Assembly: GCA_964500835.1 (NCBI GenBank)
Contig: CAZCQL010000007.1
Span: 31,871 to 95,870 of the forward strand
DNA: 64,000 nucleotides
Reading direction: 5' to 3'
From: an uncultured Bacteroides sp.
GTDB taxonomy: Bacteria > Bacteroidota > Bacteroidia > Bacteroidales > GCA-2748055
Shown piece by piece: positions 10,207-25,355 of the stretch. Position numbers and translations under genes: made by a program. The stretch's first letter is position 1; every line of letters starts with the position of its first letter. Under the pieces are notes generated by a model. It had not been told where the DNA came from. It ran no database searches and saw only the letters and a program-made list of their open reading frames with translations.

Positions 10207-13200
10207 ATGAAAACGGGAATTGGGAAATTGCTTCAGATTGAGCAGGGAAACCGGCCCATGATTGGGGCACTTCTGCTACAGGCCGTTTGTACCGGGATCT
10301 TTGTTGGGTCCCTGGAACTGGAGGCTAATGCTGTATTCCTGGAAACATTTGGTGCGGATCGCATTCCGCTGGCTATGATGATTTCCGGGGCGGCCGGCAT
10401 CCTCATTGCCACGATCTACAGCTATTTTAGCAAACAACTTGGAGTAAAAGCATTCGGAATGGTAAATCTCGCAGTGGTGATGGGAATCACCGCTGCATTG
10501 CTTATAGGTTTCCGATTACTTCAAAAAGAGCAACTCGATTTCACCGTTTTTGTCTTTACAGGCCCCATGGTTTTAATTACCCTGTTGGGATTCTGGATTA
10601 CTGTAAGAGGATTTCTATCACCGAGTAAAGGAAAGCAATTGACCGGCCTTATTGAAGTCGCTCTGATTGGAGGCATGGTATTGGCATTTGTGGCAGTTCC
10701 ACAATTGGTGAGATTGGGCGTCATGATCCAGAAGATACTCTATCTGGGTATGGGTAGTCTAATTATCGCCACAGGAGCACAGCTTTATGTGCTGACTCAG
10801 ATTGGCAGGTTTCACCACCGCTTTAGAAAGAGGGTGAAAAGTACAGGCCCCCTGGGATTGTTTTCGAACAGGTTTACCGGTTTGATGGCTGGTTTTGTGG
10901 TAATGGGTGTTGCAGTTGCAGTACTGCTTCAGTTTACTTTTTTATGGGTAACCGGAAACCGGTTCCCCGGTGGGATCGAACTTGTCTCTTTCCTTGGTTA
11001 CTTTTCCGGGATAATGATGGCACTGGCGTGGCTGATGAAAAGGTTCCTCTTTGGCTGGATCAAGAAAAAATACGGGATTCGAATGACCCTTTTGTTCTCA
11101 CCGGTTCTGTTGTTGCTATTAACTATTGCCTCAGCCATAGCAGGTGAGAGTTATGGATTTGCGGGCGAAGCACATCTTTTCACCTATTTTTTCATGCTGG
11201 TGGTATTTTCGAAATTCATTGGCAGAAGCATGAAGGAGTCTATGGAGGATCCATCCATGAACCTTATTTATCAGTCCCTGGATCCAAAGGACCGCCATAA
11301 TGTCCAATCGGGTATCGAAGGTGTACTAAGTCAGATAGGCGTTTTTACTGCGGGACTTTTCCTTGCGTGTTATGTCATGATAGGTTTCGTTGAGATTTAC
11401 CACGTGACTTACGTCTTGTTTGTGTTCCTGATCGTCTGGTTTTTTATTGGACTGGTCCTTTATCGCAGTTACCATAAAATGCTGGAAGTAACGCTTAAGT
11501 CTGACCGCATCAAAGACACGGTAGACGTAAGTTTGAAAGATCTGGTCAAAATGGATATGGAGAAGACGGCTTTTCCGATGGAATTACTGGAATTCAACGC
11601 ATATTATTATCATTATACTTCAAGGGATAAGTTACTCTCCTTGCTTAGCCATCCTCAAAGCAGGATACGCAGCCACATTTGGGATCATCTGTTGGAGTCT
11701 TCCCCCGGATTGCCTGAGCTAACGATCAGTCAGCTGTTGGCTAAGGAATCAGAGCCGGATATCAAAGCACAAATCAGAAAACTCGGTCAGCGAAAACTGA
11801 GGACAAGACTTGGATTACAGGAAGCTTTTATAAAAGAGCGGCTCGATCGATTTAGCGAAGAAAAGGTTGAACCTGACAATGCCATTGAAGAAGCATTTCA
11901 TTCCGGAGAAAGCAATGAGATCTTTGCAGCTCTCTATCATGTGGCAGAGGAGCACGACCGGACATTTCTTCCAGAAGTAATTTCCCTGCTGAGGGACAAG
12001 GATTCGGCAATTATAAGGGTGGCCATTTCCACTGCAGGCCAGATCGATACCGGTGGGAATGGCATAAAACTCATTGATTTTCTGGATCATCCAAAGCTAT
12101 ATTCCGGAGCATGGTCGGCTCTGGTTAAACAGGGTGAACGTGTGCTTGAGGAATTAGAGACTGCTTTTTATAAACCCGGCGCTCACATCAAATTGCAGAA
12201 GCGCGTCGTTTCGGTGATCTCGGCAATTGGGGGTGATCGGGCCGTGCAACTTCTGCTTGACAAACTTGATTACCATCACAGAGAGGTATTCCATTCTGTA
12301 GTGAGGGGACTATATGAGAATCAGTTCCAGGCCTCGGAGATCCAGGTTGCACTCATCCAGAATGCAATCCTCAGGATGGTCCATACCGGTACCTGGAACA
12401 TGGCCGCCAGAATCTCTGTCAGGACCGATGATCCCGGGGGAAGTCTGGCTAAAGCAATTGACCATGAGATCTGGGATGTCAATGAGGTGATCCTGATGTT
12501 AATGGCCATGATCTTCGACAGGCGGTCGGTACGTCGCATAAGGCTGAGTTTGCTTGACAGGGAAGAGGACGATCGGGGGATGTCCATTGAGTTATTGGAT
12601 CTGTTACTGAGTGAGCCTTTAAAAACTGTCCTTATTTCTTATTTTCAGGACGTTGCCGTAAGGGAGAAGATAGACAAACTAAAAGAATTGTATCCCATAG
12701 ATATCTTTCCAGTTGAAGTACTACTAAAAAGGATATTGAACCGTGATGGAACTCAAATGGGTGACTTTATCCGGATCTGCGTATTGGAAAGAATGGGGAA
12801 TGTGGATCGTTTTTTTGACGAACAACAGATAATTGCACAGGGATTTCATCCAAATCCCAAAATTCGTGAAACCGCAGCGCAATTATTGCGTAAAAACAAT
12901 CCTGAGCGGTTCAATATGGTCACAGAACGTCTGGATTTCCCGGACAATAGTTTCCCTGATCATGAGGACGCTGCAAAATGGTACATGGATACCACTATGA
13001 AGCTTACCGCTTGGAAATTGTTTTTGGATGTAGGAATAAATGCCCTGTTTAAGCTGGTTTCGGGACTACAGCCTTACTCCGAGGATGTCTTATCCGAAGG
13101 AGATTTTGTGGTTCTGGCAAGGTCAGCTGCAGCAGATGAATTTACTCCTCTTTCGTCGGGAATTGCGATTATTGCGGCATACCAGCCTGAAATTTTAGAG

Positions 13201-13332
13201 CAAATTCGTTATCTTGGTACTATCGGAACGTGTGAGGCGTACTTGATTGAAAGAGGAGAATTCATTGAACTTTTGTTTGATGACAGGAGTTTATTGCACG
13301 TTTTTTGTGCTTTTTTAAACCAAAGCACTTAA
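10207..13332 (+). CDS. Large polytopic membrane protein (~11-12 TM, MFS/nucleotide-translocase-like N-terminal third) with a ~600-aa cytoplasmic helical-repeat (HEAT-like) region and a degenerate cNMP-binding-like C-terminus
   Basis: 1041-aa ORF. Residues ~1-430 are a series of hydrophobic helices (e.g. IPLAMMISGAAGILIATIYSYF, VMGVAVAVLLQFTFLWV). The remainder is soluble, leucine-rich and alpha-helical in repeat character. The last ~110 aa (LFKLVSGLQPYSEDVLSEGDFVV...AYLIERGEFIELLFDDRSLLHVF) resemble a CAP/cNMP effector fold but lack a clear phosphate-binding cassette. The coding call is firm; the functional call is weak. Confidence 0.5.
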   Translation: MKTGIGKLLQIEQGNRPMIGALLLQAVCTGIFVGSLELEANAVFLETFGADRIPLAMMISGAAGILIATIYSYFSKQLGVKAFGMVNLAVVMGITAALLIGFRLLQKEQLDFTVFVFTGPMVLITLLGFWITVRGFLSPSKGKQLTGLIEVALIGGMVLAFVAVPQLVRLGVMIQKILYLGMGSLIIATGAQLYVLTQIGRFHHRFRKRVKSTGPLGLFSNRFTGLMAGFVVMGVAVAVLLQFTFLWVTGNRFPGGIELVSFLGYFSGIMMALAWLMKRFLFGWIKKKYGIRMTLLFSPVLLLLLTIASAIAGESYGFAGEAHLFTYFFMLVVFSKFIGRSMKESMEDPSMNLIYQSLDPKDRHNVQSGIEGVLSQIGVFTAGLFLACYVMIGFVEIYHVTYVLFVFLIVWFFIGLVLYRSYHKMLEVTLKSDRIKDTVDVSLKDLVKMDMEKTAFPMELLEFNAYYYHYTSRDKLLSLLSHPQSRIRSHIWDHLLESSPGLPELTISQLLAKESEPDIKAQIRKLGQRKLRTRLGLQEAFIKERLDRFSEEKVEPDNAIEEAFHSGESNEIFAALYHVAEEHDRTFLPEVISLLRDKDSAIIRVAISTAGQIDTGGNGIKLIDFLDHPKLYSGAWSALVKQGERVLEELETAFYKPGAHIKLQKRVVSVISAIGGDRAVQLLLDKLDYHHREVFHSVVRGLYENQFQASEIQVALIQNAILRMVHTGTWNMAARISVRTDDPGGSLAKAIDHEIWDVNEVILMLMAMIFDRRSVRRIRLSLLDREEDDRGMSIELLDLLLSEPLKTVLISYFQDVAVREKIDKLKELYPIDIFPVEVLLKRILNRDGTQMGDFIRICVLERMGNVDRFFDEQQIIAQGFHPNPKIRETAAQLLRKNNPERFNMVTERLDFPDNSFPDHEDAAKWYMDTTMKLTAWKLFLDVGINALFKLVSGLQPYSEDVLSEGDFVVLARSAAADEFTPLSSGIAIIAAYQPEILEQIRYLGTIGTCEAYLIERGEFIELLFDDRSLLHVFCAFLNQST

Positions 13333-13374: not shown

Positions 13375-16300
13375 ATGGGCGGATCCTCATTGATCAAGAC
13401 CGGGGTGCTTCAGAGAAATCCATTTCCTGGCATCAGGCCATTTACCTCGGCCGAGGATAAATATTTTTTTGGCAGGGAAGGGGCTGTCATGGAGGTGGTG
13501 GAATCCCTCCTTGCAAATAGATTTGTAGCTCTCATTGGTGCTTCAGGCAGTGGGAAAACTTCGCTGATCCAATCGGGAATCATCCCCGAACTGATAACGG
13601 ATGAAAAACAGGAGTGGGTTCCGGTTTCCATCCGGCCAGGCCAAAAACCGGTTGAGAGCCTGATCCGGGGATTTCAGCAAGTGTTCCCGAAAAAGGTTAC
13701 CGAATCTGATGTGCAGTCATTTCTCTCGGGTTCTCAGAGCCTTGGAGACCTTGTAAATGAAAAAGGGCTGGGTAGTCACAACTACTACCTGGTCGTAGAT
13801 CAATTTGAAGAAATATTCCGGAATGGACTTTCTAGCAAGAAAAAGAAAAAAAATGGTCGGAGTCCCGAAACAGTTCGGTTTGTGGACCTCCTTATTAAGG
13901 CGGTAACTGAGGAAAAGCCAGGAATTTTTGTGATGATATCGATCCGTGCGGATTATATTGATGCATGTTCGATGTACCGCACTCTTACCGAGCAATTGAA
14001 CAGGAGCAAATACCTTCTTCCATTGATGGCCCGTGAAGCCTTGTCTAAAACTATTATGGGACCAATCCGTCTGGCAGGTGCAGTCGTTGAATCGGGATTT
14101 GAAGAGTACCTGTTGGATGATTTGGATGAAGTGGATACCCAACTACCCATGCTTCAGCATGCACTCATGCGTACATGGGACTATTGGACCATGCAAGGAA
14201 ATCCGGATCAACCCATAACTATAAGTGATTACCAGGCCATCGGAACCATCCGGAATGCCCTGAGTGACCAACTTGAAGAGGCATATGAGGAGCTAAACCA
14301 ACATCAGAAATCCATTTGTGAGAGGCTTTTCAAAACCATTACCTACAAGAGTGAGCAACATGATGGATTTCTGCGGGAAGCATCGCTGGGCAACATAGCC
14401 AGAATTTCTCAATGCAGTGTCGATGACCTGGCAGAAGTAGTGGAAGTTTTCAGAAAACCTGGTCGTGCCTTTATCTCTCCGCACAATACAGTGTCCTTAT
14501 CTTCAGATTCCCTGATTGAACTTTCGCATGAATCTCTCATCCGGATCTGGGACAGGCTTCAGGAATGGGTTGATGAAGAGGCAGACTCGATTGGCATGTA
14601 CCTAAGGCTCTCGGAGGCATCAGCACTATACCAGCAAGGCAGAACAGAATTATGGAGACCCCCTGAACTTCAGGTTGCGTTGAATTGGAGAGATTCTCAG
14701 AATCCCACACCTGCCTGGGGAGTTCAATATAATCCTGCCTTTGAGAGGGCCATGGTTTTTTTAACAACCAGTGAGGAAGATTACCTGTGGGATGAGGAAC
14801 GTAAGGTTATCTTGCAGCGTAGAAGATTGATCCTGAATCGGGCCATCGCCATATTTATGGGTGCATTAGTTATTGTTTTGGGGGTAGTCTTTTTTACTAA
14901 CAAGAACAAGCCCGCTGTAACAGAACAACCCGAACAATTAGCCGAGGATTATACATATGTACCTGAAAATCGTACAACAACACCAGCTGTCACCGAAGAG
15001 ATCCTCTTGGATCCGGTAGAGGATACATATCAGGATTCCGATCTACCTGGTTCAGATAATTTGGATCCGGGATCATCCGCGGAAACGGCACCTCTGCCTG
15101 TGGTTGAAAACAGGCAGCCACAAAACAGGCAAAATCCCGGAACCCAGGTTTCAAATAATTCCAGAAATAGACCAACTACACAACGGGAGATTGTTCCCAC
15201 ACCTGCGAGTTCGAATGAAGATACCCGATTAGAAAACCAGCAAAGGATCTTATCCCTTGCAAAGGAAGTATCAATGAAAAGTGTGGATATATCCAGAAAT
15301 CCTGATTTACAGGGACTTCTGGCCTATCAGGCGTATGAACTTAATTCCCGGTTTAATGGCAGGTATTACGATGTGGATATTTACAATGGTCTGTATGCCG
15401 CTTTAAAGAAGCTTATCTCCCCGGCCTATAACATTTATCCAAATATGAGGACCTCCATCAAATCAATTAAATGGCTGGATAGAACAGGCAGCATTTTGAC
15501 AGCAAGCAGCGATGGGTCCATTAAGATCCTTTCAGGAAATTATTCTAACCGGTCTTCACAGATTACCCTGAACAGCACAGGACTCAATAATGAATGCCTT
15601 GCCATAAGCCCGGATGAGCGGATTGCTGCAGTAGGCACCAACGGAGGTGGCCTGTTATTTATTGAATTGGAAAGGGAGGGTGAAGTGATCAACAGTAATA
15701 CGAGCCAGGGTAAAATCGTTTTATTCCTCGAAAACCTTGGAAATTCGGGCAGCTTTATTTCTGCCGGGACTGAGAATAGGATTCTTAAATGGGAGTATAG
15801 CAGTTTTGCAAGTTCCACACTTGTATCCACAGAAGCAAGACCTTCGGCACTGGCGGCTTCTTCCAATGGCCAAAAAGCTGCCTTCGGAACCAGAGACGGT
15901 AAACTATTTGAACTGGAAATAAATGCTCCGGATGGGATAAGACAAATTGGCGATTTCGGGCAGAATCATGTAAGGGCATTGTCATACAGCCCCGGAGGTC
16001 AATACCTGGTAGCCGGACTTCTTGATGGTACACTCAGGGTATTGGCCGGAGATGGCCGCAGCACCATTGCCACATTACGAGGCCCCGGTGCCCGGGTGGC
16101 AGACCTTGACTACAGTCCTGATGGCAGGTTCCTGGTGGCTGCATCTCATGATGGAAATGTGTACCTATGGAACACCTCTGATTGGAGTAACCCTCCCATC
16201 ATTTTCAACGAAAACAATGGGTTCGTGCTTGCCGTTTGTTTTAGCAGGAATAGTGGATATTTTTACAGCGGAAGCGTAGATTATCCACGTCTGATTGGAC

Positions 16301-16431
16301 GGCCTTCAGAATCATCTCAAATGGCCAATAATTTTTGTTCACTGGTGGGAAGGAACCTTACTCAGGCAGAATGGGACCAGTATTTTGGGGGAGATGTCCC
16401 TTATGAAAGAACCTGTTCTGAGGTAAATTAA
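13375..16431 (+). CDS. Membrane-anchored STAND-class P-loop NTPase with C-terminal WD40 beta-propeller
   Basis: 1018-aa ORF. The N-terminus NPFPGIRPFTSAEDKYFFGRE, Walker A GASGSGKTS and Walker B YYLVVDQFEEIF are present. Helical/wHTH-like signature segments follow: LPMLQHALMRTWDYW and LSHESLIRIWDRLQEWVDEE. A single TM helix (RRRLILNRAIAIFMGALVIVLGVVFFTNK, aa ~485-507, nt ~14827-14895) comes next, then a P/T/Q/N/E-rich linker (aa ~508-620). WD40-type repeats close the protein (ILTASSDGSIKIL, YLVAGLLDGTLRVL, FLVAASHDGNVYLW). Confidence 0.8.
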   Translation: MGGSSLIKTGVLQRNPFPGIRPFTSAEDKYFFGREGAVMEVVESLLANRFVALIGASGSGKTSLIQSGIIPELITDEKQEWVPVSIRPGQKPVESLIRGFQQVFPKKVTESDVQSFLSGSQSLGDLVNEKGLGSHNYYLVVDQFEEIFRNGLSSKKKKKNGRSPETVRFVDLLIKAVTEEKPGIFVMISIRADYIDACSMYRTLTEQLNRSKYLLPLMAREALSKTIMGPIRLAGAVVESGFEEYLLDDLDEVDTQLPMLQHALMRTWDYWTMQGNPDQPITISDYQAIGTIRNALSDQLEEAYEELNQHQKSICERLFKTITYKSEQHDGFLREASLGNIARISQCSVDDLAEVVEVFRKPGRAFISPHNTVSLSSDSLIELSHESLIRIWDRLQEWVDEEADSIGMYLRLSEASALYQQGRTELWRPPELQVALNWRDSQNPTPAWGVQYNPAFERAMVFLTTSEEDYLWDEERKVILQRRRLILNRAIAIFMGALVIVLGVVFFTNKNKPAVTEQPEQLAEDYTYVPENRTTTPAVTEEILLDPVEDTYQDSDLPGSDNLDPGSSAETAPLPVVENRQPQNRQNPGTQVSNNSRNRPTTQREIVPTPASSNEDTRLENQQRILSLAKEVSMKSVDISRNPDLQGLLAYQAYELNSRFNGRYYDVDIYNGLYAALKKLISPAYNIYPNMRTSIKSIKWLDRTGSILTASSDGSIKILSGNYSNRSSQITLNSTGLNNECLAISPDERIAAVGTNGGGLLFIELEREGEVINSNTSQGKIVLFLENLGNSGSFISAGTENRILKWEYSSFASSTLVSTEARPSALAASSNGQKAAFGTRDGKLFELEINAPDGIRQIGDFGQNHVRALSYSPGGQYLVAGLLDGTLRVLAGDGRSTIATLRGPGARVADLDYSPDGRFLVAASHDGNVYLWNTSDWSNPPIIFNENNGFVLAVCFSRNSGYFYSGSVDYPRLIGRPSESSQMANNFCSLVGRNLTQAEWDQYFGGDVPYERTCSEVN

Positions 16432-16446
16432 TTAAAACAATCTGAT

Positions 16447-17568
16447 ATGCGTAAATGGATCCTAATCATCATTTCTCTTTGTCTGGGGTGTCACTCCTTG
16501 GTGGCCCAGGATGTGGTGGGATGTACCCAACTTCTTGAAGATGCCAAAGAAGCCTATGCTGCAGGAATGGTGGAACTTGTGCCAGAGTTACTGCTCCCTT
16601 GTATAGAATCCGGAGGGATGACCGGAACCACTAAGCAGGAAGCATACAAACTATTGATCAATGCATATCTGTTCGATTACCTTCCTGAGGAGGCTGACAG
16701 CCTGATGGATGATTTTGTCGAAGAATTTCCTGACTACAGGGCCAGCGCATCAGATGCTTCCGAATTTGTATTATTGCTGGAGACACATCTTCGCGCCAGG
16801 GGTATTGATCCCAATGCAGTTGTAATTTCCGATGACCAGCGTAACCAGGTTACGGAGCCCGTTAGGACAAGTGATACAAGGGCCCGTTACAGAACTCCCT
16901 TTGTGTATGGCAATTCGATGGGCTTTATTGTAGGGTCCAATGGCACATTTCCTCAAATAATTGAAAGATACAGTATCGGAGACCCAGCGGCAGATAAAGG
17001 GAGTTTTGGTTTTGCCCCAGGATTTCAACTGGGTGCCACGATGAATTTATTACTGAACGACCGCCTGGAAACTTCTTTCGGGGTGCTCTATAACCGGACC
17101 AGATTCAGTTTTACGTCCTCGCCATTCCTTTTTTCCAGCTACACCTATGAAGAGTCACAGGACCATCTTCAGATACCCGCTGCCATGATATTTAAACTAA
17201 ATCCTGAAACCTCAGGAACAAGCGTTTATTTGCGGGTGGGAGTGGTCGCGGATTATTTGCTTGGGGCCTCAGGGGCAGGTACCCGGAGTTATACGGAGTC
17301 ATTAAGAGATATAGTTGTAGAGAAAACGAAGATCAAAGACTCTCGCGCCCGGATGAATTTGCATGGAATGGCAGGGCTGGGAGTAAGAATCCCTTTCGAA
17401 AGAGCATTTCTGTTTCTAGAGACCAGGATTACCTCAGGATTGTTCCTGGTCAACCGCGAAGAGAACCGATACGAAAACCAGGACCTGACCTGGTTACTCT
17501 ATCATGTAGATAGTGATTTCAGGATCCACCAGGTAAGCTTTTCTGCCGGAATTGCCTGGAATCTTTAA
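16447..17568 (+). CDS. Secreted protein with an N-terminal helical (TPR-like) region and a C-terminal outer-membrane beta-barrel (PorT/OMP_b-brl-like)
   Basis: The signal peptide is MRKWILIIISLCLGCHSLVAQD. The C-terminal ~200 aa show the alternating hydrophobic pattern of amphipathic beta strands (FGFAPGFQLGATMNLLL, SFGVLYNRTRFSF, VYLRVGVVADYLLG, GMAGLGVRIPF, HQVSFSAGIAWNL), ending in an aromatic-containing terminal strand. Confidence 0.55.
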   Translation: MRKWILIIISLCLGCHSLVAQDVVGCTQLLEDAKEAYAAGMVELVPELLLPCIESGGMTGTTKQEAYKLLINAYLFDYLPEEADSLMDDFVEEFPDYRASASDASEFVLLLETHLRARGIDPNAVVISDDQRNQVTEPVRTSDTRARYRTPFVYGNSMGFIVGSNGTFPQIIERYSIGDPAADKGSFGFAPGFQLGATMNLLLNDRLETSFGVLYNRTRFSFTSSPFLFSSYTYEESQDHLQIPAAMIFKLNPETSGTSVYLRVGVVADYLLGASGAGTRSYTESLRDIVVEKTKIKDSRARMNLHGMAGLGVRIPFERAFLFLETRITSGLFLVNREENRYENQDLTWLLYHVDSDFRIHQVSFSAGIAWNL

Positions 17569-17589
17569 AACCTCAAGAAGCAATTGACC

Positions 17590-18798
17590 ATGAAATACAA
17601 TATAATCATGTTATCCGCGTTTTTGGGTTTCCTTTTCTCGTGTGAACGGGAAATGTCGCCCGGGCAAGCGGAAAAGTTTATTAAATATTATGGGAACTTC
17701 CTGATGGATGAAGCCCGGGATGTAGAGGTGCTTGACGACGGGGGGTTTGCCATTTGCGGGATTGATTCTGTAGCGGACCTGGGGAAAAGAATGGTATTAA
17801 TTGTCACTGACAAATACGGCAATCTTAAAAACGGATTTCCTAATTATTACACCGAGGAAGGGTTGGAATCAGGAGCTAATGCCCTTGTACCCATACGAGG
17901 CGGGCAGGGAGGATTTCTAGTGGCTGGTTATCTGGAACGTCCGGTGATCAGTGCCGTAAATTCCGCAGATACCCAGAAGGACATGTTCCTTGTGAAAGTG
18001 TCGCCCACAGGTCAAGTAGGTTGGCAGGAGAGTTACGGAACTGTGGAAGATGAGGTTATACTCCATGTAACCGAGAGAATATCATCTGGATATATGCTGG
18101 CAGGGTACCAGGTGAAGGAAGGAAAATCGGATATCCTGATCATGGGTGTTGCCGAAGAGGGTGATTCTATTAAATTGGGACTGAACTACAACAATCCCTA
18201 TGCCGAAAATGGCAAAGCAAATTTTCTTCTAAATACTGGCGAGCAATACCTGTGCGTGTGTACCTACGATAAAATAGGGAAACAAGGTACCGATATCCTG
18301 GTTCTTGGTTTCGACGACGAGTTGAGCCCGATAGATAAGAATCTTACGGATGATTCCAACGAGTTTGGCACCTGCATCATTGAGGATGATCCAGACACTT
18401 ACCTGGTCCTGGGCAACCGAATAAATTCATCCGGCAAGATTGATATGGTTGTTCACGAAATAAAAACACAAGGTTTTTTAATTACCAGCTCTGTTTTGCG
18501 TGCAACGACTTCGGAGGGAAATATGGACATGATAGGAGAGAGGTTTGTGAAGACCGAAGATGGAAGGTATGCCATTGTTGGAACAAGACGTGGAGGAGGA
18601 AACAGCGATATTTTCCTGCAGTTCCTTACATCCGAGAAAATAGAATCGGGACGAATCATCTTTGGAACAACAGGCGAACAGTCGGGTGCCGATATTGGTC
18701 TCCCAGATGATGGAGGCATCGTTATTCTGGGTACAAGTAAATATGAAGACAATAGCATGATTTCGCTGATCAGGACCACCAATACAGGTGATCTTTAG
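17590..18798 (+). CDS. Lipoprotein with repeated beta-propeller-like units
   Basis: The lipoprotein signal is MKYNIIMLSAFLGFLFS-C. Units recur about every 45-60 aa with a D-G-G-aromatic...G core (DDGGFAICGI, GGFLVAGY, SSGYMLAGY, DGRYAIVGT, DDGGIVILGT) interleaved with D-hydrophobic-K/G strands (DMFLVKVSPTGQVGW, DILIMGV, DILVLGF). The start is set at the ATG 17590 rather than the TTG 17584. Confidence 0.5.
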   Translation: MKYNIIMLSAFLGFLFSCEREMSPGQAEKFIKYYGNFLMDEARDVEVLDDGGFAICGIDSVADLGKRMVLIVTDKYGNLKNGFPNYYTEEGLESGANALVPIRGGQGGFLVAGYLERPVISAVNSADTQKDMFLVKVSPTGQVGWQESYGTVEDEVILHVTERISSGYMLAGYQVKEGKSDILIMGVAEEGDSIKLGLNYNNPYAENGKANFLLNTGEQYLCVCTYDKIGKQGTDILVLGFDDELSPIDKNLTDDSNEFGTCIIEDDPDTYLVLGNRINSSGKIDMVVHEIKTQGFLITSSVLRATTSEGNMDMIGERFVKTEDGRYAIVGTRRGGGNSDIFLQFLTSEKIESGRIIFGTTGEQSGADIGLPDDGGIVILGTSKYEDNSMISLIRTTNTGDL

Positions 18799-22085: not shown

Positions 22086-25000
22086 ATGATCGCTATGAAC
22101 AGGATCTTGATTTCTGCCATACTAATTTCCGCACTTCTTTTTCAGGGTACAACCTTTGGTCAGGATGTGGAATCCAGTAAAGGTCCAGGGGATCCGACTG
22201 CAACTATTCTGGGTAGCGAGACAAATGTTTGCCTTGGTGATTCGGTAGAAGCGTACCTTTTTTTTACCGGCGATGGTCCCTGGAATGCTATTATCAACAA
22301 TAACAGCGGAGTATATCTAACACTTAAAGAGGTTGGAACTCCATATACAATTTGGCTTAAGCCGGAATTTGACGACCGGTATTATATTGCTCGTGTTGAA
22401 GATAGAAGAAGGAGGAGAGGGAAGACTAATGGCGAGGTTGAAGTTTACGTCTTTCAACCTACACCGGTTTCCATCCAACTCGAAAGGACTGCCTATTTCC
22501 AAAGTGAACCCGGTGTAAACCTGGTGGCAGTACCTGAAGGTGGTATGTTTTCTGGAAATGGGGTGGCAGGCAATATATTTTATCCCTTTATTGCCACACC
22601 TGACGGATCTCCGCACACAATTACCTACACCTATACAAATCAACATGGTTGTCATAGTACCGATGAAGCAGATATCCAGGTCCTTTATGGAGAGGGAGAG
22701 GTTTACCTCTTATCAGATGATGAGCCTGTCAGTTCAATCTGCGATGATGGAGAGACCTATGTGATCCTGGGATCGAACCTGGATGGCATTCCGGGTCTGT
22801 TTGAACTGAGGGAAGCAGGTTCCCCGGATCCTGTTTCAGGTCATATAGCTGATAAGGATCCTGAGGATGACATGGCAACACTCGATCCCACAGGATTGGC
22901 CGGACTGTACGACATTATCTATTCATATGAATTTGATGGTCTTAGGGCTGAGGTGACGTATCGATTCCAGGTGAACGATCTGGGTATCACAGGAATTGCC
23001 GACCTGCCGGATACTGTTTGCAAGAGCAGTAATCCTTATCCCCTGGTACCTGAAATGCTTGAAAATGATCCGGGAGCCATTTACTTTTTTATTGGTCCTG
23101 GTGTATCGGGGAACCAGACAGATGGGTACTATTTTAATCCGGCTGATCCGGATGTCCCAATTGGAGAGATTGAAATTCTTCTGGAATATACCTCCTCGGG
23201 GGGCTGCTCTTCCAGCATAACAATCAAAGTAACCAATCTAGCCGTGCCTGATGTAGATTTTACCCTTACACCCGTGTGCTTACCGGAGGAGGGAGGTGTG
23301 GTTACTTTCAAAAATCTTACCACGGGAAAGCACATGGTGGATGCCTGGAGCTGGGACTTTGGAGATCCTTTAAGCGGTGAAAATAATTATAGCTCAAAAG
23401 AAAATCCGGGGCATTATTATGAGGAAGCCGGGCGCTACCAAATTAGTCTTACCGCCACTACTTTTGGAGGGTGCAAGGTTCTCTATCCATTAGATACTGT
23501 CCTGACAGATCAACCAGATGCAGATTTTACCTGGTTAAGTGATTGTTTTATCGATGGAGAAAAAGTCAGGTTTGTGGACAAATCCCTCTCCTCCTTCTCC
23601 ACCATGGATACATTGATCTGGACGTTCATGACTGAGGATGAATCGGTGCTTGGCATCACAGGAAAGAACTCTACTACGGATACAGTAGAATTTCTGTTTA
23701 CTAGCCTGGATACCTACCGGGTCAATTATTTGGTCCGTAATCATGTGGGATGTGAGGGTGATTCGACAAAAGAAATCATCTTAAAACCTATAAGCTTATT
23801 GACTGATTCAGGCTATGAGGATGATTTTAACGGAGAGAAAAGTGACTGGTTTACAGGATCCGATGGTCCAAATTTAAGCTGGATTCGGGAGGAGCCTGAC
23901 TTCGCAGGATTTCGTCAGGAAGCTGGTGATCTGGCTTGGTTTACTGCCCTTCCGTCTAATAATCCCGGGTATTTGGAAAATTCCTGGGTAGAGAGTCAAT
24001 GCTTTGATTTCAGCACCAGAAATTATCCATTCCTTACGATGGATCTCATGAAGAGTTTCACACCGGGCATTGACGGTGCGGTTCTTCAGTATCAGGATCT
24101 TGTGAGCGATGGATGGAAGACCCTTGGGAATCCCGGAGAGGGAACAGGGTGGTATAATGTGACGGAGATCTTTAATAGACCCGGAGGAAGCAACTACGGA
24201 TGGGGATTAAACCTCTTTAATCCGAATACCGAATGGGTAAATGCGAGTCATCATCTGGATGTGGTTACCGGTCATCCCCATGTAAAATTCAGAATAGCCA
24301 TTGCTACCGAAGGAGCCCATGAAATAGACTCGGGGCGCTATAACCACGGATTTGCTTTTGACAACATATTCATTGGCGAACGCGTGAAAATATCCCTGCT
24401 GGAGTATTTCACGAACTCTTCGACCATGGAGTCCAAAGTGGCCGATGATGTGGTTGATATACTTGCCATGAATCATTCAGGGAACCTGCTGGACCTGCAA
24501 TTTCATATGGATTATCCGGGAGTAGATCCCATGAATGTAAATAATCCTTACCCTCCCTCAACAAGATCTTTTAAATATGGAATTCAGGGTGTCCCGTCTG
24601 CAGTGTTGAACGGTGGAACCAGCTCTGACCACCGGTTCGATTTTTCAGATCCTTTCAACGAACCAAATGAAGAGATATTGCAGCAAGCTTCCCTTGAGAT
24701 TCCTCTGTTTGACGTGGACCTGGAGGTGGATTGGATGGAAGACAGACTTGAAGCAAATGTGATAGTTACCTGCAAGTCAGACACATTTAACTCGAATCTT
24801 CAACTTTATGTTGCAGTCATTGAAACTGCCGTATCTGCTTATACGGGACTTAACCAGGATACCCTGTTCAGGAATGTAGTCCTGGATATACTTCCTACAC
24901 CAGCCGGGAAACTTCTTGGAAATGTTTGGTTCAGTGGAAGGACCGATACAAGGACGTATTCCTGGAATTATAAGAATTGGGTGGAGGATATTGAAGATTT

Positions 25001-25355
25001 AGGAGTGGTTGCCTTCGTACAGGACAGGGATAATGGCCAAGTGTTGCAGGCAGCGTCCGAAACCCTGACACCTCAGGTGGGTTTGCTGCAACTGCCTAAG
25101 GAGCCCCCGAGGTTAACTATCTACCCCAATCCTGCAGTTGACAGGTTCTATGTGAATCTGGGAAGCCATGATATTGGCTACGGAGTTATACACATCATGG
25201 ATCTTTCAGGAAAACTTGTCAGCACTGTTGGAGTACGGCCTGGATTTAGCCTGTATCAATTGGATATTTCAACTATCCCGAGAGGAATGTACATGGTGTA
25301 CTGGCTTGAAGAAAGAGAAGTTAAAGGGCGTAATAAGCTGGTAATTACTCAATAA
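22086..25355 (+). CDS. Tandem paralog of the preceding T9SS cargo protein, with the same domain order
   Basis: It aligns colinearly by eye with the 18827-22060 product over the full length, e.g. QLYVAVIETAVSAYTGLNQDTLFRNVVLDILPTPAGKLLG vs QLYVAVMEREVTAYTGLNLDTMFRNVVLDMLPTAAGKLLG. The PKD signature is WSWDFGDPLSGENNYSSKENPGHYYEEAGRYQISLTATTFGGC. The T9SS CTD is LTIYPNPAVDRFYVNL...IMDLSGKLV...LDISTIPRGMYMVYW...RNKLVITQ. Confidence 0.75.
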   Translation: MIAMNRILISAILISALLFQGTTFGQDVESSKGPGDPTATILGSETNVCLGDSVEAYLFFTGDGPWNAIINNNSGVYLTLKEVGTPYTIWLKPEFDDRYYIARVEDRRRRRGKTNGEVEVYVFQPTPVSIQLERTAYFQSEPGVNLVAVPEGGMFSGNGVAGNIFYPFIATPDGSPHTITYTYTNQHGCHSTDEADIQVLYGEGEVYLLSDDEPVSSICDDGETYVILGSNLDGIPGLFELREAGSPDPVSGHIADKDPEDDMATLDPTGLAGLYDIIYSYEFDGLRAEVTYRFQVNDLGITGIADLPDTVCKSSNPYPLVPEMLENDPGAIYFFIGPGVSGNQTDGYYFNPADPDVPIGEIEILLEYTSSGGCSSSITIKVTNLAVPDVDFTLTPVCLPEEGGVVTFKNLTTGKHMVDAWSWDFGDPLSGENNYSSKENPGHYYEEAGRYQISLTATTFGGCKVLYPLDTVLTDQPDADFTWLSDCFIDGEKVRFVDKSLSSFSTMDTLIWTFMTEDESVLGITGKNSTTDTVEFLFTSLDTYRVNYLVRNHVGCEGDSTKEIILKPISLLTDSGYEDDFNGEKSDWFTGSDGPNLSWIREEPDFAGFRQEAGDLAWFTALPSNNPGYLENSWVESQCFDFSTRNYPFLTMDLMKSFTPGIDGAVLQYQDLVSDGWKTLGNPGEGTGWYNVTEIFNRPGGSNYGWGLNLFNPNTEWVNASHHLDVVTGHPHVKFRIAIATEGAHEIDSGRYNHGFAFDNIFIGERVKISLLEYFTNSSTMESKVADDVVDILAMNHSGNLLDLQFHMDYPGVDPMNVNNPYPPSTRSFKYGIQGVPSAVLNGGTSSDHRFDFSDPFNEPNEEILQQASLEIPLFDVDLEVDWMEDRLEANVIVTCKSDTFNSNLQLYVAVIETAVSAYTGLNQDTLFRNVVLDILPTPAGKLLGNVWFSGRTDTRTYSWNYKNWVEDIEDLGVVAFVQDRDNGQVLQAASETLTPQVGLLQLPKEPPRLTIYPNPAVDRFYVNLGSHDIGYGVIHIMDLSGKLVSTVGVRPGFSLYQLDISTIPRGMYMVYWLEEREVKGRNKLVITQ

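Follow-up and report, generated by a model that had tools for sequence, protein, structure and literature searches.

A STAND NTPase with a predicted periplasmic WD40 propeller in a conserved envelope gene cluster of Bacteroidota

Introduction

A 64,000-nucleotide stretch of DNA from an uncultured Bacteroides sp. (GenBank assembly GCA_964500835.1, contig CAZCQL010000007.1, positions 31,871 to 95,870; hereafter the window) encodes a STAND protein of 1018 residues in which an nSTAND1 NTPase module, a single transmembrane (TM) helix, a spacer and a WD40 propeller follow one another. Our analysis indicates that this protein is likely to be a bitopic inner-membrane nSTAND1 switch with a periplasmic propeller, encoded within a conserved, envelope-spanning gene set that is linked to the outer membrane. 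The starting point was an earlier note, made from the sequence alone, which had proposed that the propeller lies outside the cytoplasm.

To our knowledge, the characterized STAND and NOD-like receptor (NLR) switches, namely Apaf-1, the plant and animal NLRs, MalT, Avs and bNACHT, all sense in the compartment that holds the NTPase itself. If the predicted topology is true, the nSTAND1-TM-propeller family represents an NLR design in the form of a transmembrane receptor, with the sensor placed across the membrane. The 1018-residue protein is a typical, ordinary member of this catalogued and uncharacterized family, and on its own the gene is of modest interest. The interest attaches to the family, in which an NLR design would be linked to the outer membrane, and to the apparent loss, within the clade of the window, of the usual NADase-type partner.

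Results

A single hydrophobic helix and the predicted topology

The topology prediction begins with one segment. A 19-residue scan of Kyte-Doolittle hydropathy yields a sole peak, with a mean of 2.74 at aa 490-508, the next-best window in the protein reaching 1.40. None of the nineteen residues is charged, and a simple sum of Hessa-scale values comes to about -2.9 kcal/mol for the helix vs +8.0 for the next-best window. In the AlphaFold2 model of the protein, which was built on 53 homologs and has a mean predicted local distance difference test score (pLDDT) of 83, the segment closes one continuous helix, aa 456-508. The earlier note had described a hydrophobic segment of 23 residues; there is indeed one strong segment, but the string quoted is 19 residues long, or 24 with the preceding LILNR. 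Its reading of the flanks, with basic residues on the N-side and two Lys on the C-side, agrees with our count of six Lys or Arg (K/R) in the 15 residues ahead of the helix and two Lys, followed by acidic residues, in the 15 behind it.

Whether homologs consistently retain the helix had been raised together with the original prediction, and the answer is that they do. A word-indexed search returned 7163 homologs at E<=1e-10, and in all of the best 120 (53-100% identity, ~1000 aa) the helix lies at one and the same place, preceded by 5-9 K/R within 15 residues and followed by mostly 1-3. HMMER, run exhaustively over 1.84 billion cluster representatives, returned 13,591 at E<=1e-30, many of which probably matched through WD40 alone. 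Among the best 150 of these (28-40% identity), of which 149 were new to the set, every full-length protein has its helix at ~aa 460-550, where 4-9 K/R typically precede and 0-4 follow; one multi-peak protein (P0198) was left unresolved by the hydropathy scan. Helix and charge asymmetry are retained across every full-length homolog examined, close and distant, some 260 in all, down to ~28% identity; judged by these homologs, the segment is a family feature and not a product of chance. Conservation was further read from two alignments, one of 53 close homologs and one of 34 diverse homologs. In the diverse alignment the consensus is 'x' throughout the helix, so that hydrophobicity is conserved and residue identity is not, as is usual for a helix that faces lipid.

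We consider it highly probable, on the strength of these features, that the protein is oriented N-in/C-out with the WD40 propeller in the periplasm. The earlier note had arrived at the same orientation, and the prediction is supported by the single TM helix, the family-wide positive-inside bias and the lack of a signal peptide before the P-loop NTPase on the N side, together with the paired Cys residues of the C-terminal cap, the length of the spacer and the neighboring genes for outer-membrane proteins (OMPs), which are described below.

An apparently intact nucleotide switch

The protein lacks a signal peptide and opens directly with the NTPase module, as had been claimed for it. The Pfam nSTAND1 match begins at aa 16 and covers model positions 1-374 of 379 with 280 bits against a cut-off of 27.1 (E 6.2e-83), and the module is modelled mostly at pLDDT 86-96. 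The three motifs that had been singled out are all found: NPFPG at aa 15-19, preceded by 14 residues where about 15 had been given, Walker A at aa 55-63 with K61, and the VVDQFEE of Walker B. Across the two alignments G55, G60, K61 and S63 of Walker A are invariant, as is E145 of Walker B, while D142 is invariant or nearly so. Further along, R191, G229-P230 and H385-E386 are conserved, with R191, P230, H385 and E386 invariant or nearly so, and we infer that R191, G229-P230 and H385 are the putative sensor-1 Arg, GxP and winged-helix His of STAND proteins. The helical and winged-helix-like elements that follow the P-loop domain are modelled with high confidence, the module reaching to ~aa 455. 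With these positions conserved, the nucleotide switch looks intact.

A Foldseek search with the model placed Apaf-1 structures from the PDB at the top of the full-length matches, at ~11% sequence identity; a profile search of PDB sequences gave WD40 matches only and, by sequence, no solved nSTAND1 relative. The possibility of a cryptic effector domain at one of the termini had also been raised, and none was detected at either end by Pfam, the structure model or Foldseek. Scans against NCBIfam and PADLOC gave nothing informative for the NTPase or its neighbors, the two PADLOC matches of the STAND protein (21 bits in the WD40 repeats and 16 bits in the P-loop) being marginal and rated as noise. 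A copy 100% identical to the protein is present in a public protein collection.

Spacer, helical bundle, propeller and cap

The stretch between helix and propeller has the Pro/Thr/Gln/Asn/Glu-rich composition previously described for it, is slightly shorter than the ~110 residues then estimated, and proves disordered when inspected in the AlphaFold2 model (Table 1). Its median length is ~107 aa in close and in distant homologs alike. The composition nevertheless differs, Pro plus Gly accounting for 14% in close homologs, which are of the disordered type, and for 2% in distant homologs, in which 70% of residues are A/E/K/Q/R/L/M and the spacer is coiled-coil-like. Length is thus conserved while chemistry changes, which suggests that the spacer acts as a ruler spanning the periplasm.

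The three-helix bundle that follows includes among its conserved columns L645, L648, A650 and G662, in the close and the diverse alignment. Pfam WD40 and propeller families then match aa ~690-985, and the model supplies the blade count that had been proposed as a check, namely seven. Placed beside 7-bladed WD40 structures, the propeller gives target-normalized TM-scores (template-modelling scores) of 0.84-0.87 against PkwA (5yzv), WDR61 (3ow8) and WDR5.

Two Cys residues of the C-terminal cap, C988 and C1014, do not vary among close homologs and are retained by at least 90% of the diverse ones. Among 231 homologs with a recognizable cap motif, both residues occur in 205 and neither in 23. A single Cys is found in only three, and for at least two of these the upstream search range was cut short. 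Joint gain or loss is the pattern expected of a disulfide pair, and the periplasm is where stable disulfides form; the cap is probably stapled by a C988–C1014 disulfide.

An outer-membrane partner that persists while its barrel changes

The gene that directly follows encodes an OMP, which is modelled (pLDDT 89) with helices at aa 26-117, a flexible link and a beta-barrel at aa 157-372. The N-domain consists of five helices, is TPR-like and carries a Cys pair, and the small barrel structurally matches OmpA, OmpW, OprG and OmpX. A hidden Markov model (HMM) of this N-domain, built from small Bacteroidota barrels only, gives a match, in most loci, in the gene that follows the STAND gene. Furthermore, it matches the N-termini of proteins of ~850-917 aa, eleven at E 5e-22 to 1e-7 and one at E 0.007, whose genes come straight after the STAND gene in Chitinophagia, Sphingobacteriia and Thermoanaerobaculia. 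The one protein of this kind that was scanned against Pfam, at locus L053, possesses a TonB-dependent-receptor Plug domain; the other large N-domain proteins share an SVSKKAE motif after the N-domain and mostly have aromatic, barrel-like C-termini. Every locus with the N-domain module has an nSTAND1-TM-propeller gene close by, nearly always directly before it, and no Pfam family covers the module. Terriglobia loci possess a different downstream barrel, Phenol_MetA_deg, that ends in YRYSF. Since small barrels, Plug-type proteins and Phenol_MetA_deg barrels all follow the STAND gene, the outer-membrane partner gene is, by gene position, constant across phyla despite the changing type of barrel.

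A separate observation concerns the module itself, a TPR-like unit of ~95 aa with a Cys pair that is common to OmpA/OmpW-sized barrels and TonB-receptor-like (Plug) proteins. It also follows the STAND gene at loci L040, L050, L053, L056, L058, L060, L063, L064 and L068-L070.

Gene order and inheritance of the cluster

The downstream genes had been described as encoding exported proteins throughout, and this is what we find: a barrel with a signal peptide, a lipoprotein, and two proteins with signal peptides that carry C-terminal sorting domains of the type IX secretion system (T9SS). From the upstream partner to the second T9SS cargo all genes lie on one strand, with successive intervals of 42, 15 and 15 nt, an overlap and 25 nt, the first of these separating the upstream 1041-aa gene from the STAND gene. 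The transporter-like upstream gene occurs on the same strand and near the STAND gene in most Bacteroidota loci, and its Fulvivirga ortholog gives a cNMP_binding match. Lipoprotein orthologs come after the OMP gene in many Bacteroidota loci, and orthologs of the large T9SS cargo terminate the cluster in many loci; the lipoprotein of the window has no Pfam, NCBIfam or PADLOC match.

Metagenomic contigs with STAND proteins 54-62% identical to that of the window repeat this gene order, and there the cluster has the same housekeeping flanks, namely yhhQ and the methylcrotonyl-CoA carboxylase (MCC) gene upstream and the flavodiiron, psd, cdsA and ftsH genes downstream. The order is also found in genomes of Bacteroidales, Cytophagales and Flavobacteriales with STAND proteins of 29-38% identity. 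Because order and housekeeping flanks are shared across STAND proteins that are only 54-62% identical, the pattern fits a vertically inherited core envelope module and not a mobile defense island. A scan of the cluster for sigma-70 promoters and terminators gave counts not above those of shuffled sequence, Bacteroidota promoters falling outside the models used. These counts being uninformative, the argument for an operon is made entirely from the 15-42-nt gaps and the conserved order.

Some further features of the region may be recorded. Two weak, overlapping hairpin-plus-T-run matches lie at 13296-13328 (+), at the end of the upstream gene, and the regional count of such matches is not above shuffled. 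The T9SS cargo gene is single-copy in relatives, at times ~2000 aa long, and forms a tandem pair in the window. Finally, in some Bacteroidales-type loci a ~670-aa gene with HAMP and SpoIIE (PP2C phosphatase) domains follows the transporter-like gene and precedes that for the STAND or TIR protein (L010, 6922-8967; L008, 5581-7593; also L019, L022, L041, L057, L006 and L009); this HAMP-PP2C gene is a further signalling-type partner.

Table 1 Features of the STAND gene and its neighbors in the window (coordinates count from the first letter of the window)
Feature	Position	Strand	Basis
Upstream partner, 1041 aa; 11-12 TM transporter-like domain (weak MFS-like), HEAT repeats, cNMP-binding-like end	10207..13332	+	hydropathy, HEAT_2 match
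nSTAND1 NTPase–TM helix–spacer–WD40 propeller gene	13375..16431	+	open reading frame, 1018 aa plus stop
nSTAND1 NTPase module, aa 16-422 (P-loop, helical, winged-helix domains)	13420..14640	+	Pfam PF20703
Walker A GASGSGKTS, aa 55-63, K61	13537..13563	+	column conservation in homologs
Walker B YLVVDQFEE, aa 138-146, D142, E145/E146	13786..13812	+	column conservation in homologs
Basic cluster RKVILQRRRLILNR, aa 476-489, predicted cytoplasmic side	14800..14841	+	6 K/R
Predicted single TM helix AIAIFMGALVIVLGVVFFT, aa 490-508	14842..14898	+	only hydropathy window >1.6
Predicted periplasmic spacer, ~105 aa (508-612), Pro/Thr/Gln/Asn/Glu-rich	14899..15207	+	pLDDT 29-37, disordered
Three-helix bundle before propeller, aa 612-681	15208..15417	+	helices 612-637, 643-659, 667-681, pLDDT >90
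Seven-bladed WD40 beta-propeller, aa 695-977	15457..16305	+	27 modelled strands
C-terminal cap, motif C988..RNLTxxEW..Y..PY..TC1014	16306..16428	+	Cys conservation
Outer-membrane protein with signal peptide, 373 aa, 15 nt after STAND stop	16447..17568	+	OMP_b-brl_2 match
Lipoprotein, 404 aa, lipobox LFSC	17584..18798	+	sequence
Two paralogous T9SS cargo genes, 1090 and 1089 aa	18788-22060, 22086-25355	+	PKD, Omp28-like, Por_Secre_tail (Pfam, NCBIfam)

A large family and a clade without its usual partner

The arrangement of nSTAND1, TM helix and propeller is, to judge from the homologs recovered, the standard layout of a very large family, whose sequence clusters number in the thousands and come from at least five phyla. 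The earlier suspicion that the architecture might not be unique was well placed and, if anything, understated, since the layout is tabulated in the supplement of Kaur et al. (2021). A sixth phylum was considered on the evidence of locus L009, from a metagenome-assembled genome (MAG) labelled Chloroflexota, and rejected: its cluster is of the Bacteroidales type and it groups inside Bacteroidales in the tree. Given this gene order and tree position, the locus is likely to be mis-binned and was left uncounted.

In many loci an additional gene separates the transporter-like and STAND genes, and one family of such genes (~480-510 aa) encodes TIR_2 and DUF4062 domains. The TIR_2+DUF4062 gene stands directly upstream of the STAND gene in 47 of the 79 loci placed in the tree, and a TIR+DUF4062 profile recovered 50 open reading frames from 83 fetched loci. 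Its occurrence upstream of the STAND gene extends over Cytophagales, Chitinophagales, Sphingobacteriales, some Bacteroidales, Acidobacteriota, Planctomycetota and one Proteobacteria MAG. In the 64-kb window the same profile gave no match, even at E<=10. A maximum-likelihood tree of the NTPase halves places the window in an 18-member clade (support 100/99), none of whose members has a TIR+DUF4062 gene, compared with 47 of the 62 other tree rows; within this clade the window belongs to a six-member subclade on a long branch (1.29). The root of the tree was not established. Loss of TIR+DUF4062 in the clade of the window is the simpler reading of this distribution, because the partner occurs across five phyla. 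The earlier statement that there is no N-terminal effector thus holds for the protein but not for the family: since most relatives have a separate upstream TIR+DUF4062 gene, the want of an effector is a trait of the lineage of the window.

Variants of the partnership were also seen. In a Blastopirellula MAG (L072, 6430-8925 and 8938-17028) the upstream gene fuses a Ser/Thr kinase to TIR and DUF4062, and the STAND protein has 2696 aa. TIR-bearing and TIR-less versions of the cluster occur in different MAGs of Fulvivirga and Ohtaekwangia (L012 vs L024; L043 vs L020/L027) and of Cyclobacteriaceae; these may be paralogs co-existing in one genome, each locus here coming from a different MAG.

Discussion

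A proposed model for an envelope-spanning switch

The reading that we prefer, of a bitopic inner-membrane switch in an outer-membrane-linked gene set, leads to the following working model. The nucleotide switch (aa 16 to ~480, comprising the P-loop, helical and winged-helix domains) would reside in the cytoplasm, the helix at aa 490-508 would cross the inner membrane N-in/C-out, and the ~105-residue spacer would place the bundle, the 7-bladed propeller and the cap in the periplasm. The conserved gene set encodes the HEAT/cNMP transporter-like protein, the NTPase, the outer-membrane barrel, the lipoprotein and the T9SS-secreted surface proteins. Within this set the WD40 propeller may dock on the TPR-like N-domain of the OMP, such that a change in the outer membrane or periplasm would be relayed via the single helix to the STAND module, which in turn would change its nucleotide state and oligomerize at the cytoplasmic side of the membrane. 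For lineages that carry the TIR gene, the upstream TIR+DUF4062 (NADase-type) protein would probably be the output. As this gene is absent from the clade of the window, the output there would have to be another, for which the HEAT/cNMP membrane protein encoded upstream is the nearest candidate.

Several points count against this model. Contact between the propeller and the N-domain of the OMP is deduced solely from the adjacency of their genes, and the clade of the window is without a recognizable output domain. The co-occurrence of Cys988 and Cys1014 yields a Fisher p of 9e-29 that counts related sequences and is uncorrected for kinship. Moreover, D[ST][AILVMT], the O-glycosylation motif of Bacteroidota, occurs in the C-terminal half of the protein without enrichment (0.12 vs 0.20 per 100 aa), which lends the model no support.

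It is tempting to speculate further that the family constitutes phylum-spanning 'outside-in' NLR-like receptors wired to the outer membrane, and that the clade of the window is a domesticated, effector-less form that controls or reports on the T9SS surface protein. In this clade such a receptor would cause no depletion of NAD+ and would act via the upstream HEAT/cNMP transporter-like protein. We offer this extension tentatively, as possible but not the likely outcome.

Alternative explanations

That in Bacteroidota the gene is steadily accompanied by those for an outer-membrane barrel, a lipoprotein and T9SS cargo could also mean that the protein works from the inside out, as a TolA/TonB-like mechanical or assembly factor whose NTPase positions, assembles or energizes the OMP, the lipoprotein and the T9SS giant, no sensing being involved. 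The want of an effector in the lineage of the window would sit well with such a function, as would the ~105-aa spacer, which in most relatives is a long A/E/K/Q-rich helix resembling TolA domain II. We regard an assembly factor as doubtful, however. The disordered spacer in the lineage of the window could not transmit force, and STAND NTPases are generally known as slow switches and oligomerization platforms, not motors. Furthermore, the TIR/DUF4062, HAMP-PP2C and cNMP-binding partners of the relatives indicate signalling.

Signalling of another kind would be expected of an anti-phage, NLR-like abortive-infection sensor that responds to phage components or damage in the periplasm or outer membrane by cell death or growth arrest. 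The family lends itself to this idea, in that nSTAND1 was defined in predicted counter-invader systems, the STAND plus WD40 plan recalls Apaf-1 and Avs, and most relatives are preceded by TIR_2+DUF4062, both domains being NADase effectors in characterized defense systems. Yet it is precisely the TIR+DUF4062 gene that is absent from the window and its 18-member clade. The PADLOC matches are no better than noise, the constant partners are envelope and surface proteins, and synteny with housekeeping genes fits vertical inheritance and not a mobile defense island. A defense role is, on this balance, rather improbable for the protein studied here.

Least credible, and in our view very improbable, is that the hydrophobic segment is a buried or oligomerization helix that does not span the membrane, or that the topology is inverted with the propeller cytoplasmic as in Apaf-1: the WD40 sensors of characterized STAND proteins are, as far as is known, all cytosolic, and the unenriched O-glycosylation motif agrees with such a location, but 19 uncharged residues at a hydropathy of 2.74 with no second hydrophobic segment, the conservation of hydrophobicity without residue identity in ~260 homologs, the positive-inside bias, the paired Cys of the cap and the outer-membrane partner genes across phyla all argue otherwise, and inversion would mean exporting a 480-aa P-loop NTPase without a signal peptide.

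Significance

The layout has been catalogued and yet is not known to have been discussed or tested in print. A literature search brought up no account of the topology argument, of a link to the outer-membrane N-domain, of the spacer as ruler, of the Cys pair or of the effector-less clade. Apparently unpublished, then, are the link to the outer-membrane N-domain, the spacer length, the paired Cys and the fact that a lineage without an effector exists within an envelope cluster linked to the T9SS. The topology and the role of an NLR-like switch in Bacteroidota envelope biology become directly testable questions.

Comparison with known systems

The closest precedent lies in the family to which the protein belongs. 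The name nSTAND1 was given by Kaur, Iyer, Burroughs and Aravind (eLife 2021, PMC8195603), whose main text mentions it once and contains nothing on membranes or topology. In the source data of their Figure 2 the string 'nSTAND1+TM' occurs 412 times and 'nSTAND1+TM+BetaPropeller' 278 times, and with the latter the protein of the window shares the NTPase family, the one TM segment, the C-terminal propeller and the order of domains. In the part of the supplement drawn on here, nSTAND1+TM+BetaPropeller is often listed after a TIR+DUF4062 gene, and rows with CASPASE+nSTAND1+TM+BetaPropeller also occur. In the same part a 'TMx11+cNMP' gene is listed upstream for one Cytophagales bacterium and for a 'Bacteroides sp.'; where this 11-TM+cNMP neighbor is present, the TIR+DrHyd (DUF4062) gene sits between it and the NTPase. 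The two Bacteroidota rows either do not show downstream genes or give them as '?', the latter being so for the 'Bacteroides sp.' row. The architecture and two of its neighbors are therefore in print as table rows. Relative to these rows, as far as that part of the supplement extends, the window and its clade differ in the absence of the TIR+DrHyd gene before the NTPase. Their lineage differs also from other nSTAND1-TM-propeller relatives in having a disordered spacer in place of a coiled-coil-like one.

Beyond the family, Apaf-1 and proteins of the NWD1/TEP1 type likewise place a STAND nucleotide switch before one or more WD40 propellers. A 2026 preprint describes TEP1 and NWD1 as combining DUF4062, a STAND NTPase and WD40 in a single protein, which is the domain set that the nSTAND1-TM-propeller family encodes on two genes in most lineages, and 2026 preprints on anti-phage defense report DUF4062 to be a TIR-like NADase in defense systems and in human TEP1. 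However, Apaf-1 and NWD1/TEP1 are wholly cytosolic and carry an effector or adaptor fused at the N-terminus, whereas in the protein of the window a predicted TM helix parts the switch from a single 7-bladed propeller and there is no fused or adjacent effector.

The FecA-FecR-FecI system offers a different likeness, for, as predicted here, it contains a single-pass N-in/C-out inner-membrane protein with a periplasmic C-domain, encoded beside an OMP with a periplasmic N-extension. The likeness extends to the Plug-domain, TonB-receptor-like partner of Chitinophagia, Sphingobacteriia and Thermoanaerobaculia. In the window, by contrast, a STAND NTPase forms the predicted cytoplasmic part, the N-domain of the OMP is TPR-like and not STN, and the barrel is small, of OmpA/OmpW size. 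Pfam and NCBIfam scans identified no sigma or anti-sigma family among the genes of the cluster, and because no such component is present the likeness to FecA-FecR is one of design analogy and not of membership.

A sensor predicted to lie beyond the membrane also has parallels in print. For some targets diversified by diversity-generating retroelements, one of them containing a NACHT domain, Doré et al. (2024) predicted that the sensor domains are periplasmic. In a 2020 review (PMC7475262) the domain that follows a TM helix in cyanobacterial orthocaspases is predicted to be an 'extracellular WD40', and a 2025 preprint (10.1101/2025.11.14.688446) lists 'transmembrane STAND ATPases' among the sensors fused to proteases in Pepco systems. 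These caspase- and protease-linked transmembrane STAND proteins of cyanobacteria and actinobacteria resemble the protein of the window in the succession of a cytoplasmic part, a TM helix and a predicted extracellular WD40 domain. They are, however, fused to an N-terminal caspase, trypsin or kinase effector and are encoded in variable, conflict-type loci, whereas the protein described here is effector-less and belongs to a conserved envelope cluster.

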